Shown here in pieces: positions 1-4,219 of a DNA stretch of 4,287 bases (position 1 is its first letter; each line of letters opens with the position of its first letter). The DNA is taken from the IMG/VR virus record IMGVR_UViG_2531839235_000007; one strand, 5' to 3'. Below the pieces are notes generated by a model. That model searched no databases. It was not told the origin of the DNA and saw nothing but the letters and a program-made list of their open reading frames with translations. The translations under genes and the position numbers were made by a program. This stretch comes from a virus (Duplodnaviria > Heunggongvirae > Uroviricota > Caudoviricetes).

Positions 1-486
1 CTCTGGATTGCTCAGATTGGCGCGATGACTGAACAGCAAATCCGGCAGGTCTGCCGTCAGTGCATGGACCGCTGCCGGGCGGGTGAAACGTGGCCTCCGG
101 ACCTGGCTGAGTTTGTGGCGTTGATTTCGGAGAGCGGGGCAAATCCATTTGGCCTGACGGTGGATGCCGTGATGGAGGAGTACCGTCGCTGGAGGAATGA
201 ATCCTGGCGGTACGACGGGAGTGATAAATACCCGTGGCCACAGCCGGTGCTGTACCACATTTGCCTCGAGATGCGTGACAGAGGGATTGAGCGGCAGATG
301 ACGGAAGGTGAGTTAAAACGACTTGCAGAACGGCAACTGACGAAATGGGCAAAGCAAGTTGGTAACGGGATGAGTATTCCCCCGATCCGGAGACAACTCG
401 CATCGCCGAAGTGCCCGCAAGGGCCAACGCCAATTGAATTACTGAAACAGGAATACGAGCGCCGGAAGGCGGCTGGTTTTGTTTGA
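1..486 (+). CDS. Replication protein P-like (lambda P family), 5'-truncated by the window edge
   Basis: Frame 1 is open from base 1 to TGA at 484-486 (track ORF 25..486 is the in-frame ATG portion). The translation recalls the lambda P C-terminal region: YPWPQPVLYH, TEGELKRLAERQL and IPPIRRQL versus my memory of lambda P YPWKSNAHYW, TDAELRRKAADEL and IPEPVKQL. This is from memory, not an alignment. Confidence 0.75.
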   Translation, partial: LWIAQIGAMTEQQIRQVCRQCMDRCRAGETWPPDLAEFVALISESGANPFGLTVDAVMEEYRRWRNESWRYDGSDKYPWPQPVLYHICLEMRDRGIERQMTEGELKRLAERQLTKWAKQVGNGMSIPPIRRQLASPKCPQGPTPIELLKQEYERRKAAGFV

Positions 487-519
487 ATCTGAGAAACGAT
501 TTTGTCGGAGGAAATTTTA

Positions 520-1236
520 ATGGAAACCGTATCTGACGCACTGAAAGCACTGAAAAGAGCCTCTTCACATGTGGTGGCAGCTCGCCTTGGAATTAGTCGT
601 GAAGAGGCTGTCAACGAACTGTGGAAACTGAAACGCCGTGGAGAAGCGGATAACAAGGGGGCGATATGGTGGCTGACTCAGGCTGGTGAAAGTGAACCGG
701 TGTCACCGGTACCGAAAGTGACGGCGCAAATGCTGACAGAGGCGATTGAACAACATGGCCCACAAACGGCGGATGAACTGGCATTGATGTTCGGAATTAC
801 CTCCCGCCGGGCGAATTCATCGCTGGCAATGGCAATCAGCAAAGGGTGTCTGATTCGCGTGAATCAGGATGGTAAATTTCGTTACTGCATACCGGGCGTT
901 GATTTACCGGCAGAGCCGAAAGCAGCATCCGTAGCTGAAACGGAGGGTAAAGCCCTTCCTCAGCCAGCTGGTGTTGCGTTACCAGTCCAGGAAACGGCTG
1001 CACAGGAAGAAATTAAAACAGAAGCGGTGGAGGACATTGTGAAGTTGCAGCAATCGTTCACTGAAGCGAAAGCAGATGACCTGATTCTACCATCGCTGCA
1101 TGTGGCTAACCGCGAGCTGCGCCGGGCGAAAAGTAATGTTCAGAAGTGGGAGCGAGTCTGTGCTGCGCTACGGGAACTGAACAAACACAGGGATATTCTC
1201 CGGGATATTACCGCCACCAGAGAGCAGCAGCGGTGA
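520..1236 (+). CDS. Hypothetical prophage protein with two winged-helix-like repeats and an acidic, coiled-coil-like C-terminal half (possibly DUF1627-type; family uncertain)
   Basis: Track ORF 502..1236 begins at a TTG; the in-frame ATG at 520 has GGAGGA 7 nt upstream, so 520 is preferred. Two similar segments (residues ~10-60 and ~75-130 of the track ORF) each look like helix-turn-helix plus wing. Stop TGA at 1234-1236. Confidence 0.75.
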
Positions 1237-1550
1237 GTGGCTGGAAGAAGTGGCGCTGGGCTGAAATCCTGATACTCCGGCAGTGTGCGGGAACGATGAG
1301 AGTCGAAAGCATCGGTTATCTGATTGGCCGTAGTGAGTCAGCCGTCAGGACGAAAGCGCGGGAACTGGGTATCAGCATGATGTTACGGGGTGATTATCAC
1401 CAGTCAGCCAAATGTTCACAGCGTGATATTGAGCTGGCGTGGCAACTGCATCAGCGTGGTGTACCCCGACGGGAAATTGCCGAAAAGTTTGGGATGAAGT
1501 TGGGCGCAGTGAATAACTACGTTTATTTCGACAGGAGGGTTCAGGAGTGA
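1233..1550 (+). CDS. Small DNA-binding protein with two tandem helix-turn-helix-like motifs
   Basis: Same frame as track ORF 1146..1550. GTG at 1233 overlaps the upstream TGA (GTGA), which suggests translational coupling; ATG at 1296 is an alternative start. Segments WAEILILRQ...[21 protein letters not shown] and [29 protein letters not shown] look like two HTH units; the first needs the 1233 start. Stop TGA at 1548-1550. Confidence 0.65.
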
Positions 1551-1849
1551 GGGTGAGGGTTTATATCGCCGGTCCGATGACGGGATATGAAAATTTTAAC
1601 CGCGAGGCATTTCACAAAACGGAAGAGGTGCTGAAACGGGAAGGGCATACCGTTTTAAACCCGGCAGTACTTCCGGACGGGCTGACTCAGCCACACTACA
1701 TGGATATTTGCATGGCAATGCTCCGTTGCGTGGATGCGGTTTACATGCTGAAAGGCTGGCAGCAGTCGGCAGGTGCAGGGGCTGAGCTGGCACTGGAGGA
1801 GAAACCGGGCCATGCGGTGATTTTTCAGGAGGTGGGCAGTGAATATTGA
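1547..1849 (+). CDS. DUF4406-like protein (nucleoside 2-deoxyribosyltransferase-like fold)
   Basis: Track ORF 1547..1849. GTG start overlaps the upstream stop (GTGA); AGGAGG at 1533-1538 precedes it, and an in-frame GTG at 1553 is an alternative. N-terminal VYIAGPMTGYENFNREAF and later AVYMLKGWQQSAGAGAE match my memory of the DUF4406 signature. Stop TGA at 1847-1849. Confidence 0.7.
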   Translation: MRVRVYIAGPMTGYENFNREAFHKTEEVLKREGHTVLNPAVLPDGLTQPHYMDICMAMLRCVDAVYMLKGWQQSAGAGAELALEEKPGHAVIFQEVGSEY

Positions 1850-2156
1850 CCCGGCGATAACGATTGATATGGCCCTGAACGCCGGCCTGGCACTTCTTGG
1901 TTATTTCTACATTATGTTCTGCAGCGGACGATGGCTGTCACTGTTGTTCATGAAAAAATGGAATAAACGCCGTAAGCAGGAGCAACGCCAGAAGGCAATG
2001 GATGCATTTTTCGAAGCCTTCGGAATTGACGGCATGGAACCAGGGGATCCAGCTCGCGCAATCAGCAGAGGGGGTGTAGTAATCCTTGTATATCGGAGTG
2101 AAGAGAAAAATGACGATCACAAAACAACGTGTAGAAGAAATCATATCCCGCATTGA
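1839..2156 (+). CDS. Possible small membrane protein (one predicted transmembrane helix followed by a basic stretch)
   Basis: Track ORF 1839..2156. GTG start with AGGAGG at 1827-1832, 6 nt upstream; ATG at 1869 is an alternative. Hydrophobic segment LALLGYFYIMFCSGRWLSLLF followed by KKWNKRRKQEQRQK. It overlaps the upstream gene by 11 nt and the downstream gene by 47 nt, so its true extent is uncertain. Confidence 0.4.
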   Translation: MNIDPAITIDMALNAGLALLGYFYIMFCSGRWLSLLFMKKWNKRRKQEQRQKAMDAFFEAFGIDGMEPGDPARAISRGGVVILVYRSEEKNDDHKTTCRRNHIPH

Positions 2157-2427
2157 AATGTATGGACATGGTGCAGGGTATATCGCAGACGAGGTTAATG
2201 ATCTGGCTATACTGGCGCTGAATTTATCAAATATCGCGAACCTGAAGCGATACGAGCTTGATATGGGAGGTTGCGACTCGTGCGGTCAGGATTGTGGCGC
2301 TGATATGACTGAAGATCCTGATGGTGATTATGTCCTGTTTGATGACGTGGTTAAGTTGTTTGAATTTGATACAACCACTCAAAAGTTAGAAATCCCGGCA
2401 AAGGAGGCAGCCAGTGGGCAAGATTGA
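2110..2427 (+). CDS. Hypothetical prophage protein with a Cys-rich CDSCGQDC motif and acidic C-terminus
   Basis: Same frame as track ORF 2086..2427, which begins at a TTG. ATG at 2110 with a purine-rich GGAGTGAAGAG stretch upstream is preferred. Stop TGA at 2425-2427. Confidence 0.65.
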   Translation: MTITKQRVEEIISRIEMYGHGAGYIADEVNDLAILALNLSNIANLKRYELDMGGCDSCGQDCGADMTEDPDGDYVLFDDVVKLFEFDTTTQKLEIPAKEAASGQD

Positions 2428-2851
2428 CTATCAGGCACTGCGTGAGGCAGCACAAAACTATCAATCGACGCTGGCGTGGTATCAGGCTACCCCGGACAGC
2501 CCAAATGCTGAACGGGATTGTGATGCGGCTCTTGCTGCGTTTAAGCGTCACATCCGTCATCGGGAAGCGGATATTATCGCTGATTTGCTGGATGGACTGG
2601 AAGAAGCAAAATCACAACTCAACGAGCAGCGTGAGTATTACGAAGGCGTTATCTCTGATGGGAGCAAGCGTATTGCTGAACTGGAAGCGCGGGAAGTTCA
2701 ATTACCGACTCGCTACGACCTTCGATATGGACACCCGATAAATGCAGATGAGCGACATGTCATGATACCTAAAGAAAATGGCAGTTGGCTTTACCTGATT
2801 GACCTAGAACACGCATTACGCGTCGCTGGCATTCGCATCAAAGGAGAGTGA
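2414..2851 (+). CDS. Ea22-like prophage protein (putative)
   Basis: Track ORF 2414..2851. GTG start with AAGGAGG at 2401-2407, 6 nt upstream. The N-terminus IDYQALREAA resembles, from memory, the N-terminal signature of ead/Ea22-like E. coli prophage proteins. Stop TGA at 2849-2851. Confidence 0.7.
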   Translation: MGKIDYQALREAAQNYQSTLAWYQATPDSPNAERDCDAALAAFKRHIRHREADIIADLLDGLEEAKSQLNEQREYYEGVISDGSKRIAELEAREVQLPTRYDLRYGHPINADERHVMIPKENGSWLYLIDLEHALRVAGIRIKGE

Positions 2852-2852
2852 G

Positions 2853-3044
2853 ATGAACGGACAAATATCAATTGTTCGACCAGGAGCATGTGACGATCGC
2901 GAAATACGAATGATTATTCGTCTGGCGATGGGGAAAACAATAACAGCTCTCATTACTCCTGAAAATCTCGCATTAGCATTAACAGGAAAGTCAGACATGC
3001 CAGTAGAGCTAAAGCTGCGAAATGTTGAGATTAAGGTGAAATAG
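2853..3044 (+). CDS. Hypothetical small protein (63 aa)
   Basis: Track ORF 2853..3044. ATG lies 1 nt after the upstream stop (GAGTGAGATG) with AAAGGAGAG upstream. I recognise no family. Confidence 0.6.
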   Translation: MNGQISIVRPGACDDREIRMIIRLAMGKTITALITPENLALALTGKSDMPVELKLRNVEIKVK

Positions 3045-3046
3045 CT

Positions 3047-3604
3047 ATGACCACTATTACCAAAGATCGACTGCTGACAATCCAGCATTGGCGCGAAACA
3101 TACGGACCGGGTAGCAACGTTGTGCTTCCAGCAGAAGAAGCGGAAGAGCTGGCACGGATTGCGCTGGCATCACTGGCAGCAGTATCGGATGAACGAGCAG
3201 CCTATGAATTATTTATGGAGAAGCGTTTCGGAGAATCTGTAGATCGCCGCAGAGCAAAAAATGGCGATAGAGAATACATGGCATGGGATATGGCGCTTGG
3301 CTGGATTATCTGGTGTCACCGCGCCGCCATGCTTCAGGCTGGAAACTTTCGGGAAAATAAGGGTTCGTCAACCAATAATTTTCGGATAATCTCGGAAACG
3401 TCAACCAACTCTCCGGCAATCCCTGATGAGGTGTTGTCCGCAATCCTGAAGGTCGCCAGGCTTCGTGCAGATTTCGATGCTTCTGAAGTGGACAGGCGAG
3501 GTATCGGTAGTTGTCTGGATGAGGCCGAGCAAGAACTTATCGTTACCATTAACGAATACGCCAGTCAGATCGCAGTAGAAGCGACACAGGGGGAGAACCA
3601 ATGA
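3047..3604 (+). CDS. Hypothetical prophage protein (185 aa)
   Basis: Track ORF 3047..3604. ATG with AAGGTGA upstream, 2 nt after the preceding stop. Long uninterrupted frame in a same-strand gene chain. I recognise no family. Confidence 0.75.
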   Translation: MTTITKDRLLTIQHWRETYGPGSNVVLPAEEAEELARIALASLAAVSDERAAYELFMEKRFGESVDRRRAKNGDREYMAWDMALGWIIWCHRAAMLQAGNFRENKGSSTNNFRIISETSTNSPAIPDEVLSAILKVARLRADFDASEVDRRGIGSCLDEAEQELIVTINEYASQIAVEATQGENQ

Positions 3605-3678
3605 GCCGGCCAGATGCATTTGCAGGCGTTGCTATAGCTATTGCTTTTCTAGTATATGTTATTTGTCGGTGGGGGTAA
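3601..3678 (+). CDS. Candidate 25-aa hydrophobic micro-protein (MSRPDAFAGVAIAIAFLVYVICRWG)
   Basis: Hand-translated; too short for the ORF track. ATG at 3601 overlaps the upstream TGA (ATGA), with GGGGAGA about 8 nt upstream. The peptide is one predicted transmembrane helix. Stop TAA at 3676-3678. Confidence 0.35.
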   Translation: MSRPDAFAGVAIAIAFLVYVICRWG

Positions 3679-3888: not shown

Positions 3889-3906
3889 TGCTGCGGGTGC
3901 TTGAGG

Positions 3907-3942
3907 CTGTCTGCCTCGGGCATGCCACCGTAAGGCAGACAG
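3907..3942 (+). other. Stem-loop in the predicted hok mRNA leader (10-bp perfect stem, 16-nt loop with an internal GGCATGCC palindrome)
   Basis: CTGTCTGCCT at 3907-3916 is the exact reverse complement of AGGCAGACAG at 3933-3942. The loop contains the self-complementary GGCATGCC at 3919-3926. Confidence 0.5.
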
Positions 3943-3944
3943 AG

Positions 3945-4015
3945 AAAAGCCCCAGTTAACATTACGCGTCCTGCAAGACGCCTAACATTAATCTGAGGCC
4001 AATTTCATGCTAGAC
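3945..4015 (-). ncRNA. sok: Candidate Sok-like antisense RNA (coordinates approximate)
   Basis: In hok/sok loci the antitoxin RNA is antisense to the mok translation-initiation region. On the - strand there is a weak candidate promoter: -35 TTGCCT (+ coordinates 4050-4045), 17-nt spacer, -10 TAACCT (4027-4022). A T-rich run on the - strand near 3949-3941 could mark the 3' end. I could not define a clean terminator hairpin. Confidence 0.3.
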
Positions 4016-4219
4016 ACATGTAGGTTAGCCTCTTACGCGCCGAAAGGCAAGGAGAAGCAGGTTATGAAGCAGCAAAAGGCGATGTTAATCGCCCTGATCG
4101 TCATCTGTTTAACCGTCATAGTGACGGCACTGGTAACGAGGAAAGACCTCTGCGAGGTACGAATCCGAACCGGCCAGACGGAGGTCGCTGTCTTCACAGC
4201 TTACGAACCTGAGGAGTAA
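4007..4219 (+). CDS. mok: Mok-like leader ORF, in frame with and containing hok (70 aa)
   Basis: Track ORF 4007..4219. ATG at 4007 with CTGAGG about 8 nt upstream. The N-terminal extension MLDTCRLASYAPKGKEKQV resembles the chromosomal MokC extension as I remember it. Confidence 0.55.
   Translation: MLDTCRLASYAPKGKEKQVMKQQKAMLIALIVICLTVIVTALVTRKDLCEVRIRTGQTEVAVFTAYEPEE
4064..4219 (+). CDS. hok: Hok/Gef family type I toxin (HokD/RelF-like, 51 aa)
   Basis: ATG at 4064 with AAGGAGAAG upstream. MKQQKAMLIALIVICLTVIVTALVTRKDLCEVRIRTGQTEVAVFTAYEPEE has the Hok signature: N-terminal transmembrane helix, the conserved TRK-LCE-R motif and a periplasmic tail. It is close to Gef/HokC and RelF/HokD as I remember them. 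Stop TAA at 4217-4219. Confidence 0.9.
   Translation: MKQQKAMLIALIVICLTVIVTALVTRKDLCEVRIRTGQTEVAVFTAYEPEE

Follow-up and report, generated by a model that had tools for sequence, protein, structure and literature searches.

A DUF4406 gene in the early operon of an Escherichia coli O157-type prophage and its possible role in deoxynucleotide N-glycosidic cleavage

Introduction

What does a 100-residue protein of the DUF4406 family do for the phages that carry it? We address this question for a gene at positions 1547-1849 (+ strand) of a 4,287-nucleotide stretch of viral DNA (Caudoviricetes; IMG/VR record IMGVR_UViG_2531839235_000007). The whole stretch is called the window below, and all positions refer to it. 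Its source is a lambdoid prophage of the RacR type from an O157-type Escherichia coli. The gene almost certainly encodes a protein of the DUF4406 family, and thus of the nucleoside 2'-deoxyribosyltransferase (NDT) superfamily, within a phage early operon. What its product acts on is a more tentative matter. We find it plausible, if still doubtful, that the protein cleaves the N-glycosidic bond of 2'-deoxynucleoside 5'-monophosphates (dNMPs) through Glu80, by hydrolysis or by phosphodeoxyribosyl transfer, and so acts on the nucleotide pool during replication. For this reading we infer substrate class, chemistry, and biological role.

The gene belongs to the DUF4406 family

An earlier note on the window, made from its letters, had called the gene DUF4406-like and had named two family profiles with which to check the call. 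The first matched strongly: the protein scores 115.1 bits (E = 2e-33) against Pfam PF14359, which has a curated gathering threshold of 22 bits, and residues 4-92 cover model positions 2-90 of 91. The second, the NDT profile PF05014, gave no match to the window protein at E ≤ 0.01. PHROG 355, labeled "nucleoside 2-deoxyribosyltransferase", matches at E = 4e-43, and the family profile search returned no NCBIfam match. Furthermore, the 303 bases of 1547-1849 are 100% identical to the RefSeq coding sequence of WP_001310212.1 ("DUF4406 domain-containing protein") in E. coli O157:H7 genomes. The gene is thus a known family member that is already annotated correctly. The features that define it are as follows.

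1547-1849, + strand: coding sequence of the DUF4406 protein, 100 amino acids, GTG start, TGA stop at 1847-1849 (open reading frame [ORF] list, Pfam, RefSeq identity)
1533-1538, + strand: AGGAGG ribosome-binding site, 8 nucleotides 5' of the GTG at 1547 (seen in the sequence)
1553, + strand: alternative in-frame GTG start, in agreement with the start of most homologs
1543-1547, + strand: AGGAG, a possible ribosome-binding site for the GTG at 1553 (seen in the sequence)

Because the second GTG has an AGGAG of its own and the starts of homologs agree with it, the true start could be either 1547 or 1553, which leaves the first two residues of the predicted protein uncertain. On the minus strand, two ORFs overlapping the gene (1596-1793 and 1655-1813) were rejected for want of support.

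The family signature (YIAGPM-x-G, N-R-x-x-F, LNP-x-x-LP-x-G, and GW-x-x-S-x-GA-x-x-E) is complete in the window protein. Across 46 homologs, Y6, A8, M11, G13, N18, R19, F22, L37, P43, G45, S74, G76, A77, and E80 are invariant, and most signature residues are retained in 73 more distant representatives.

Active-site residues and predicted fold

Conserved DUF4406 residues align with the active site of NDT-type enzymes. In the PDB, neither the single protein nor a profile of close homologs (A1) retrieved anything relevant, and an hhalign comparison of A1 with human DNPH1 aligned the N-terminal motif only and was not significant. A broader profile (A3), built from 73 family members of greater diversity, however, reached the Trypanosoma brucei NDT (TbPDT, 2a0k) at E = 5.8e-5 across the whole domain. 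In this alignment, Tyr6 falls on Tyr5 of "IYIAGP", at the end of beta1, Ser74 on Asp76, Gly76 on Gly78, and Glu80 on Glu82, the nucleophile position, where the helix after beta3 starts. The families reached by sequence profiles are of the NDT type only (TbPDT, LmPDT, BlsM, BcmB, PF05014, and DUF1937), and actinophage DUF4406 proteins also match PF05014, with up to 28.5 bits. Three groups of codons are of interest here.

1562-1585, + strand: Tyr6-Ile-Ala-Gly-Pro-Met-Thr-Gly13, strand beta1 and the following loop; Tyr6 is at the catalytic Tyr position of the NDT superfamily
1766-1786, + strand: Ser74-Ala-Gly76-Ala-Gly-Ala-Glu80, an S-x-G-x-x-x-E motif with a putative 5'-phosphate-binding Ser and Gly and a putative nucleophile Glu
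1703-1711, + strand: Asp53-Ile54-Cys55, part of an invariant YMDIC motif in helix alpha2; Cys55 is at the third catalytic position (Asp/Asn)

Tyr6 is kept as Tyr in 116 of 120 homologs; the columns of Tyr6, Ser74, Gly76, and Glu80 have 116-120 residues each, of which no fewer than 114 agree with the window protein. Tyr6 aligns with Tyr24 of human DNPH1 (sequence validated against PDB entries), and the loop aligns with "YFCGSIRGG", the phosphate-binding backbone loop of that enzyme. The spacing S-x-G-x-x-x-E recurs in DNPH1 (S98-L-G100-V-G-Y-E104) and in MilB (S97/G99/E103). The acidic residue that binds the 5'-OH in NDTs, six residues before the Glu, is not present; Ser74 stands in its place.

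The roles of these residues in DNPH1, MilB, and DmtZ favor a dNMP substrate and Glu80 as a covalent nucleophile. In rat DNPH1, the Ser87 side chain and the Gly89 backbone bind the 5'-phosphate while Glu93 holds the sugar (PMC3834327). MilB binds phosphate through Ser97 and Gly99, and an E103A mutation abolishes its catalytic activity (PMC4081090). In the phage dAMP hydrolase/transferase DmtZ, Tyr6 and Glu103 are essential, the Tyr has been proposed to exclude ribo-substrates, and the 5'-phosphate pocket of this dNMP-specific enzyme has uncharged residues (PMC12884076). The earlier note had the family acting on nucleosides and nucleotides alike; the Ser-x-Gly-x-x-x-Glu motif points to 5'-phosphorylated substrates and not to nucleosides. 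Likewise, of the catalytic Glu/Asp arrangement that the note had proposed to look for, Tyr6 and Glu80 are aligned, but the Asp position is held by Cys55.

The predicted structure has the flavodoxin-like alpha/beta fold with a parallel sheet seen in solved NDT, DNPH1, and MilB structures. An AlphaFold2 model built with 46 homologs has a mean predicted local confidence (pLDDT) of 87.9 and a predicted template modeling score (pTM) of 0.82, and runs beta1 (4-8), alpha1 (19-31), beta2 (35-37), alpha2 (48-59), beta3 (64-67), alpha3 (75-85), and beta4 (90-93). Its structure-comparison scores are 12.4 with 1t1j, 11.4 with MilB, 11.0 with two bacterial NDTs, 9.6 with Rcl/DNPH1, and 8-10.4 with TIR and ThsB domains. 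In Foldseek, the model matches NDTs, DNPH1, MilB, and BcmB with TMq of 0.69-0.78, and viral predicted structures labeled deoxyribosyltransferase or DUF4406 with TMq of up to 0.89. As modeled, the protein is a shortened NDT fold, with four strands and ~95 residues, whereas the solved enzymes have five strands and 137-165 residues. With a strong Pfam match, a predicted NDT fold, and a family profile that reaches a solved NDT, the note's proposal of a deoxyribosyltransferase-like fold therefore holds.

Proposed reaction and points against it

The residue pattern can be read as a reaction path. The protein would bind a dNMP, with the 5'-phosphate held by Ser74, Gly76, and the Gly9-Gly13 loop. Tyr6 would orient Glu80 and disfavor a 2'-OH. 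Glu80 would then attack C1' and free the base, leaving a covalent deoxyribosyl-5-phosphate-enzyme intermediate, which might be resolved by water (hydrolase) or by a second base (phosphodeoxyribosyl transfer). In this way, the pool of dNMPs and bases would be reshaped or cleaned during phage replication.

Several observations weigh against this reading. One concerns the third member of the NDT triad, where the helix that precedes beta3 carries Asp or Asn in NDT-superfamily enzymes and Cys55 in the window protein. A gapless alignment with DUF4406 proteins of actinophages pairs Cys55 with the Asp of their "RRD", and this Asp in turn aligns with Asn53 of TbPDT and with an Asp in both Bacillus psychrosaccharolyticus NDT (BpNDT) and 1t1j. 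Enterobacterial relatives all have this Cys. Across the wider family, most sequences also have Cys here, and the others have Asp, Gly, Ala, Thr, or Ser. We also considered Asp53 as the triad Asp and rejected it, as the alignments put Cys55 there and Asp53 varies across the family. In DmtZ, replacing the corresponding Asn costs ~100-fold in kcat/Km (PMC12884076). Thus, with Cys in place of Asp/Asn, activation of the leaving group must differ from that in the characterized enzymes, or else the reaction itself is a different one.

The C-terminus is a further difficulty. The protein ends after beta4 (~residue 93), without the C-terminal active-site segment of NDTs, which are 137-165 amino acids long. 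In the Lactobacillus leichmannii NDT, C-terminal elements supply active-site residues from the partner subunit. Similarly, the second phosphate-binding serine of rat DNPH1 is supplied by the partner subunit (PMC3834327). Moreover, the match to the DNPH1 motif is the best local alignment but is not significant by sequence alone, so that it rests on motif and fold together. Pfam and RefSeq annotation placed no dNTP or dNMP enzyme next to the DUF4406 gene in the prophage, and the copy in the window may itself be weakened or inactive, as set out below. Finally, no assay of any DUF4406 protein was found in the searchable literature, where three papers mention DUF4406, each incidentally, and none mentions PF14359. 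This agrees with the earlier note's remark that the function of the family in prophages is uncharacterized.

The O157 allele

The window allele carries four private substitutions, judged against the nearest relatives and family column counts.

1619-1621, + strand: codon of A25T; Ala in 77 of 119 homologs and in the nearest relatives
1778-1807, + strand: R78G lies within this interval; Arg or Lys in 92 of 118 homologs
1778-1807, + strand: A84E, same interval; Ala in 109 of 117 homologs
1778-1807, + strand: L87P, same interval; Leu in 99 of 117 homologs

The last three, each a single-base change, flank Glu80 within 10 residues. The residue four positions after the Glu is Ala in TbPDT, LmPDT, and DNPH1, and is Glu84 in the window allele. 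A related sequence (L009) is intermediate, with E84 and P87 but with R78 retained. Across 1770-1815 (46 nucleotides), there are no synonymous changes relative to the nearest alleles.

Against diverged alleles, dN/dS of the window gene is ~0.07-0.17, and the family is therefore under purifying selection. Against the closest alleles it is ~0.5-0.66, a rise that is not statistically secure because the counts are small (3-6 synonymous differences [Sd] and 6-10 nonsynonymous differences [Nd]). The pattern of changes is suggestive of relaxed constraint. Together with the pseudogenes of the prophage described below, the ratio against the closest alleles indicates that this copy may be weakened or inactive.

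Prophage setting and early operon

A lambdoid prophage carries the gene in its early operon. Window bases 1-3422 are 99.7% identical, by alignment, to a prophage of strain TR01 that is integrated beside potC. The TR01 prophage begins with integrase, excisionase, a RacR-type repressor, a helix-turn-helix (HTH) protein, and a YdaT-like protein. These are followed by a DnaT-like initiator, a lambda-P-like loader, DUF1627, a small HTH protein, DUF4406, and DUF4752, then by two small ORFs around an Ead/Ea22-like gene and a DUF551-like gene, and at the end by hok/sok, DUF968, a RusA pseudogene, and lysis and terminase genes. RefSeq annotation lists an exonuclease, RusA, and DUF6645 as pseudogenes, and with several pseudogenes the prophage is at least partly defective. 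The features around the DUF4406 gene are these.

25-486, + strand: lambda-P-like helicase loader (Pfam Phage_lambda_P, 6.8e-16; PHROG 109, P-like helicase loader, 5e-55)
1233-1550, + strand: small HTH protein gene (weak HTH and Sigma70_r4 matches in Pfam; PHROG 323, 2e-24; RefSeq coding sequence)
1233-1236, + strand: GTGA overlap of the HTH gene's GTG start with the stop of the DUF1627 gene (sequence)
1547-1550, + strand: GTGA overlap of the DUF4406 start with the TGA stop of the HTH gene (sequence; RefSeq, L001 11687-12004 and 12001-12303)
1839-2156, + strand: DUF4752 gene, GTG start (Pfam DUF4752, 7.5e-39; RefSeq coordinates)
1839-1849, + strand: 11-nucleotide overlap of the DUF4406 and DUF4752 genes (ORF list)
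2110-2156, + strand: 47-nucleotide overlap further along the chain
2414-2427, + strand: 14-nucleotide overlap further along the chain

The window's genes all share the + strand, and most of them overlap the next gene or come close to touching it. Start/stop overlaps chain six consecutive genes (DUF1627, HTH, DUF4406, DUF4752, PHROG 3126, and Ead/Ea22-like), an arrangement along the early operon that suggests translational coupling. A promoter and terminator scan of the DUF4406 gene boundaries found no promoter-like or terminator-like site above shuffle expectation; the closest terminator-like match on the + strand is at 1921-1938, inside the DUF4752 gene downstream. With overlapping + strand genes and no such site at its boundaries, the DUF4406 gene belongs to the early rightward operon. 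The lambda-P-like loader lies ~1 kb upstream on the same strand, which bears out the earlier note's placement of the gene beside replication genes in a phage early region. Its position in the prophage corresponds to that of the nin region in lambda.

Other parts of the window also merit description. The DUF1627 protein (502-1236; Pfam, 6.8e-82) has weak N-terminal winged-helix-like matches (AlkZ-like, DUF5817_CT, and MarR-type PHROGs) and a weak PHROG match to a Ren-like exclusion protein, and its gene is placed as ren is in lambda. A complete hok/sok type I toxin-antitoxin locus, hokD in RefSeq, occupies 3895-4219.

3895-4069: sok (Rfam, 115.6 bits)
4064-4219: Hok/Gef toxin ORF (Pfam HOK_GEF, 1.2e-23)
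4007: start of an overlapping mok-like ORF (ORF list)

Identity between the window and TR01 resumes at 98.2% from 3615, and the 192 bases of 3423-3614, which do not align, are placed in the ORF at 3047-3604. By the alignment, this segment is a mosaic replacement toward the C-terminal end of a gene named DUF551 by RefSeq in TR01. The 185-amino acid window version of this DUF551-like protein (ORF 3047-3604) has no Pfam match at E ≤ 0.01.

Distribution and genomic neighbors

DUF4406 genes are widespread. The gene is present in 1,115 of 5,426 complete E. coli genomes, and relatives occur in 521 of 50,697 phage records, chiefly of phages of Arthrobacter, Vibrio, Gordonia, Mycobacterium, and Pseudomonas, which cover hosts in the Proteobacteria and Actinobacteria. 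A profile search (E ≤ 0.001) puts the family at 17,408 clusters at 50% identity.

To describe its neighbors, we analyzed 80 loci from different species, 56 of which were scorable in that a crude gene caller placed the DUF4406 gene. None of these 56 revealed a conserved neighbor or fixed partner. Recurrent neighbors are an HTH_36 protein (possibly a replication initiator), DnaB, IstB/DnaC-like loaders, RdgC, DUF2786/DUF7168, integrases, and Dam/Dcm methylases; DUF4752 adjoins DUF4406 in close enterobacterial relatives only. With no conserved neighbor and replication genes recurring, DUF4406 is a mobile accessory gene of phage replication modules and not part of a fixed system.

Among 48 longer relatives, no domain fusion was informative; they carry sporadic DUF551 or ClpX zinc-finger extras, or overlapping sister families. 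Actinophage entries named "MazG-like pyrophosphatase" or "deoxycytidylate deaminase" were considered as fusions and rejected, being stand-alone, mislabeled DUF4406 proteins of ~125 amino acids; some others are mislabeled "hydrolase". A few database entries join DUF4406 and DUF4752 as one protein (P0008, 169 amino acids). Given the 11-nucleotide overlap of both genes here, these are probably a frameshift or gene-calling artifact. Mycobacterium phage Mufasa gp55 (L165 1545-2306), with 253 amino acids, has a C-terminal DUF4406 domain at residues 152-244, and its N-terminal ~150 residues have no Pfam match. This may be a relative with two domains, the second of which might give a clue to function.

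In Mycobacterium phage Ariel (gp162-gp166; L163 2474-4473), DUF4406, PRA-PH/MazG-like, and dGTP_diPhyd_N (DUF5664) genes stand together in a stretch of five genes, the other two being a small ORF and an HNH endonuclease that lie among them. The DUF4406 gene, mislabeled "MazG-like pyrophosphatase", is at most 1.1 kb upstream of the PRA-PH/MazG-type gene (21.1 bits, cut-off 21.3) and the dGTP_diPhyd_N gene. The dGTP_diPhyd_N family converts dNTPs to dNMPs (PMC12884076), and the Ariel arrangement is a suggestive functional hint for a role on dNMPs.

Alternative explanations

Could the protein instead act on another substrate? A classical NDT would serve salvage by exchanging bases among deoxynucleosides and not among nucleotides; PHROG 355 is so labeled, as are many phage genes in GenBank, the T. 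brucei transferase is the best sequence-level match in the PDB, and Tyr and Glu are conserved. We nevertheless think it very unlikely, because the 5'-OH binder (TbPDT Asp76) is here an invariant Ser, as in the 5'-phosphate enzymes DNPH1 and MilB, because the protein, with 100 versus ~137-165 amino acids, lacks the C-terminal portion of an NDT active site, and because PF05014 does not match it at E ≤ 0.01. The annotations themselves are transferred by homology, and some relatives with DUF4406 alone are labeled "MazG-like" or "dCMP deaminase". The earlier note had also allowed for a part in defense or counter-defense. The protein would then be a counter-defense factor that cleaves or sequesters a signaling or cofactor nucleotide, such as an immune signal derived from NAD+ or ADP-ribose (ADPR) or a cyclic nucleotide. 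We found nothing positive in support and no link to known defense systems: PADLOC gave no match for the DUF4406 protein or seven neighboring proteins, the scorable loci revealed no conserved partner gene, NDT-type structures outscore TIR domains, sequence profiles lead to NDT-type families only, and the searchable literature offers no experimental hint. This makes a signal nucleotide an unlikely target. That the substrate is polymeric DNA, with the protein serving as a glycosylase or in base exchange for phage DNA modification or repair, is scarcely credible. The gene does lie among replication and recombination genes, and Dam and Dcm methylases are recurrent neighbors in other genomes. However, the characterized relatives in fold and sequence all act on mononucleosides or mononucleotides, and neither a DNA-binding domain nor, in the 48 longer relatives, a fusion to one was found. 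Lambdoid phages of the RacR type are not known to carry modified bases.

Two further possibilities concern the state of the protein. Independently of its substrate, the window copy could be a decaying, probably inactive passenger in a defective O157 prophage, a minority view that we nonetheless take seriously. It would account for A25T, R78G, A84E, and L87P at strong-consensus positions, three of them close to Glu80, for the Glu at a position that is Ala in TbPDT, LmPDT, and DNPH1, for the stretch 1770-1815 devoid of synonymous change, for the higher dN/dS against close alleles than against distant ones (~0.1), and for the exonuclease, RusA, and DUF6645 pseudogenes. On the other hand, the ORF is intact, the invariant motif residues, ribosome-binding site, and coupled overlaps are all kept, the substitution counts are too small for a secure rise in dN/dS, and the changes could be adaptive. 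The fold is also still predicted with confidence, though AlphaFold2 is insensitive to point mutations. Distinctly unlikely, but of some consequence, is a further reading. The clade of DUF4406 proteins from proteobacterial phages, which has Cys55 in place of the general-acid Asp/Asn and lacks a C-terminal lid, would be a minimal N-glycosidase with a catalysis of its own, which temperate phages might use to destroy or exchange a specific, non-bulk nucleotide. Its target might then be, for example, a dNMP that is damaged or modified, or an immune signal of the host, and about one-fifth of E. coli genomes would hold an unrecognized nucleotide-pool or counter-defense function.

Significance and comparison with known systems

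As it stands, the window gene is an ordinary, correctly annotated accessory gene, and its value lies in a very large family and a directly testable residue analysis. Cleavage of dNMPs through Glu80 is a concrete hypothesis that is cheap to examine, drawn from Tyr6, Ser74-x-Gly76, Glu80, and a Cys for the Asp. If it were confirmed, a common phage early gene would gain a name, and a natural minimal scaffold would be added to an enzyme family used for nucleoside-analog synthesis.

Comparison with known systems begins with the gene's own family. The match to PF14359 is full-length and the protein is identical to WP_001310212.1, with an allele that departs from consensus at residues 25, 78, 84, and 87. 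TIR and ThsB domains and the NDT-like effectors of retrons have structures that score below those of NDT-type enzymes. We found no Pfam TIR match, and neither a PADLOC match nor a sensor or partner gene that would place the protein among the NDT-like effectors of defense systems or retrons. The structure 1t1j (structural-genomics target APC5043, a hypothetical protein of 125 amino acids) has weak sequence similarity (E = 0.3) and an Asp at the Cys55 position; its own function being unknown, it adds no functional information.

The enzymes of established activity differ from the DUF4406 protein in instructive ways. DNPH1/Rcl has Asp80 where the DUF4406 protein has Cys55, is ~45 residues longer at the C-terminus, takes its second phosphate-binding Ser from a partner subunit through a segment that has no equivalent here, and has Ala four residues after the Glu, whereas the window allele has Glu. 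The CMP and hydroxymethyl-CMP N-glycosidases MilB, BcmB, and BlsM use ribonucleotide substrates and have Phe, not Tyr, after beta1, together with Asp78, an Arg23 gate, a five-stranded sheet, and ~160-170 amino acids. NDTs (PF05014; TbPDT, 2a0k; L. leichmannii NDT, 1f8x) are the only solved family reached significantly by sequence. They share the fold and the Tyr, Gly, and Glu, while Asp76 is replaced by Ser74 and Asn53/Asp by Cys55 in the DUF4406 protein; the transferases also have a four-residue insertion before the motif and a longer C-terminus.

The only phage enzyme of the NDT superfamily that we found with measured activity is DmtZ, from phage Ghobes of Gordonia and phage Wayne of Arthrobacter, which we compared with DUF4406 by its published description. 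DmtZ comes from Z-genome phages, is paired with a Dut-like enzyme that cleaves dATP and dGTP, and was published in 2026; according to its authors, no Pfam model covers it, and hence by their account it is not DUF4406 (PMC12884076). DmtZ is a dAMP hydrolase and deoxyribose-5-phosphate transferase that has Asn77 at the third catalytic position, where the DUF4406 protein has Cys55.

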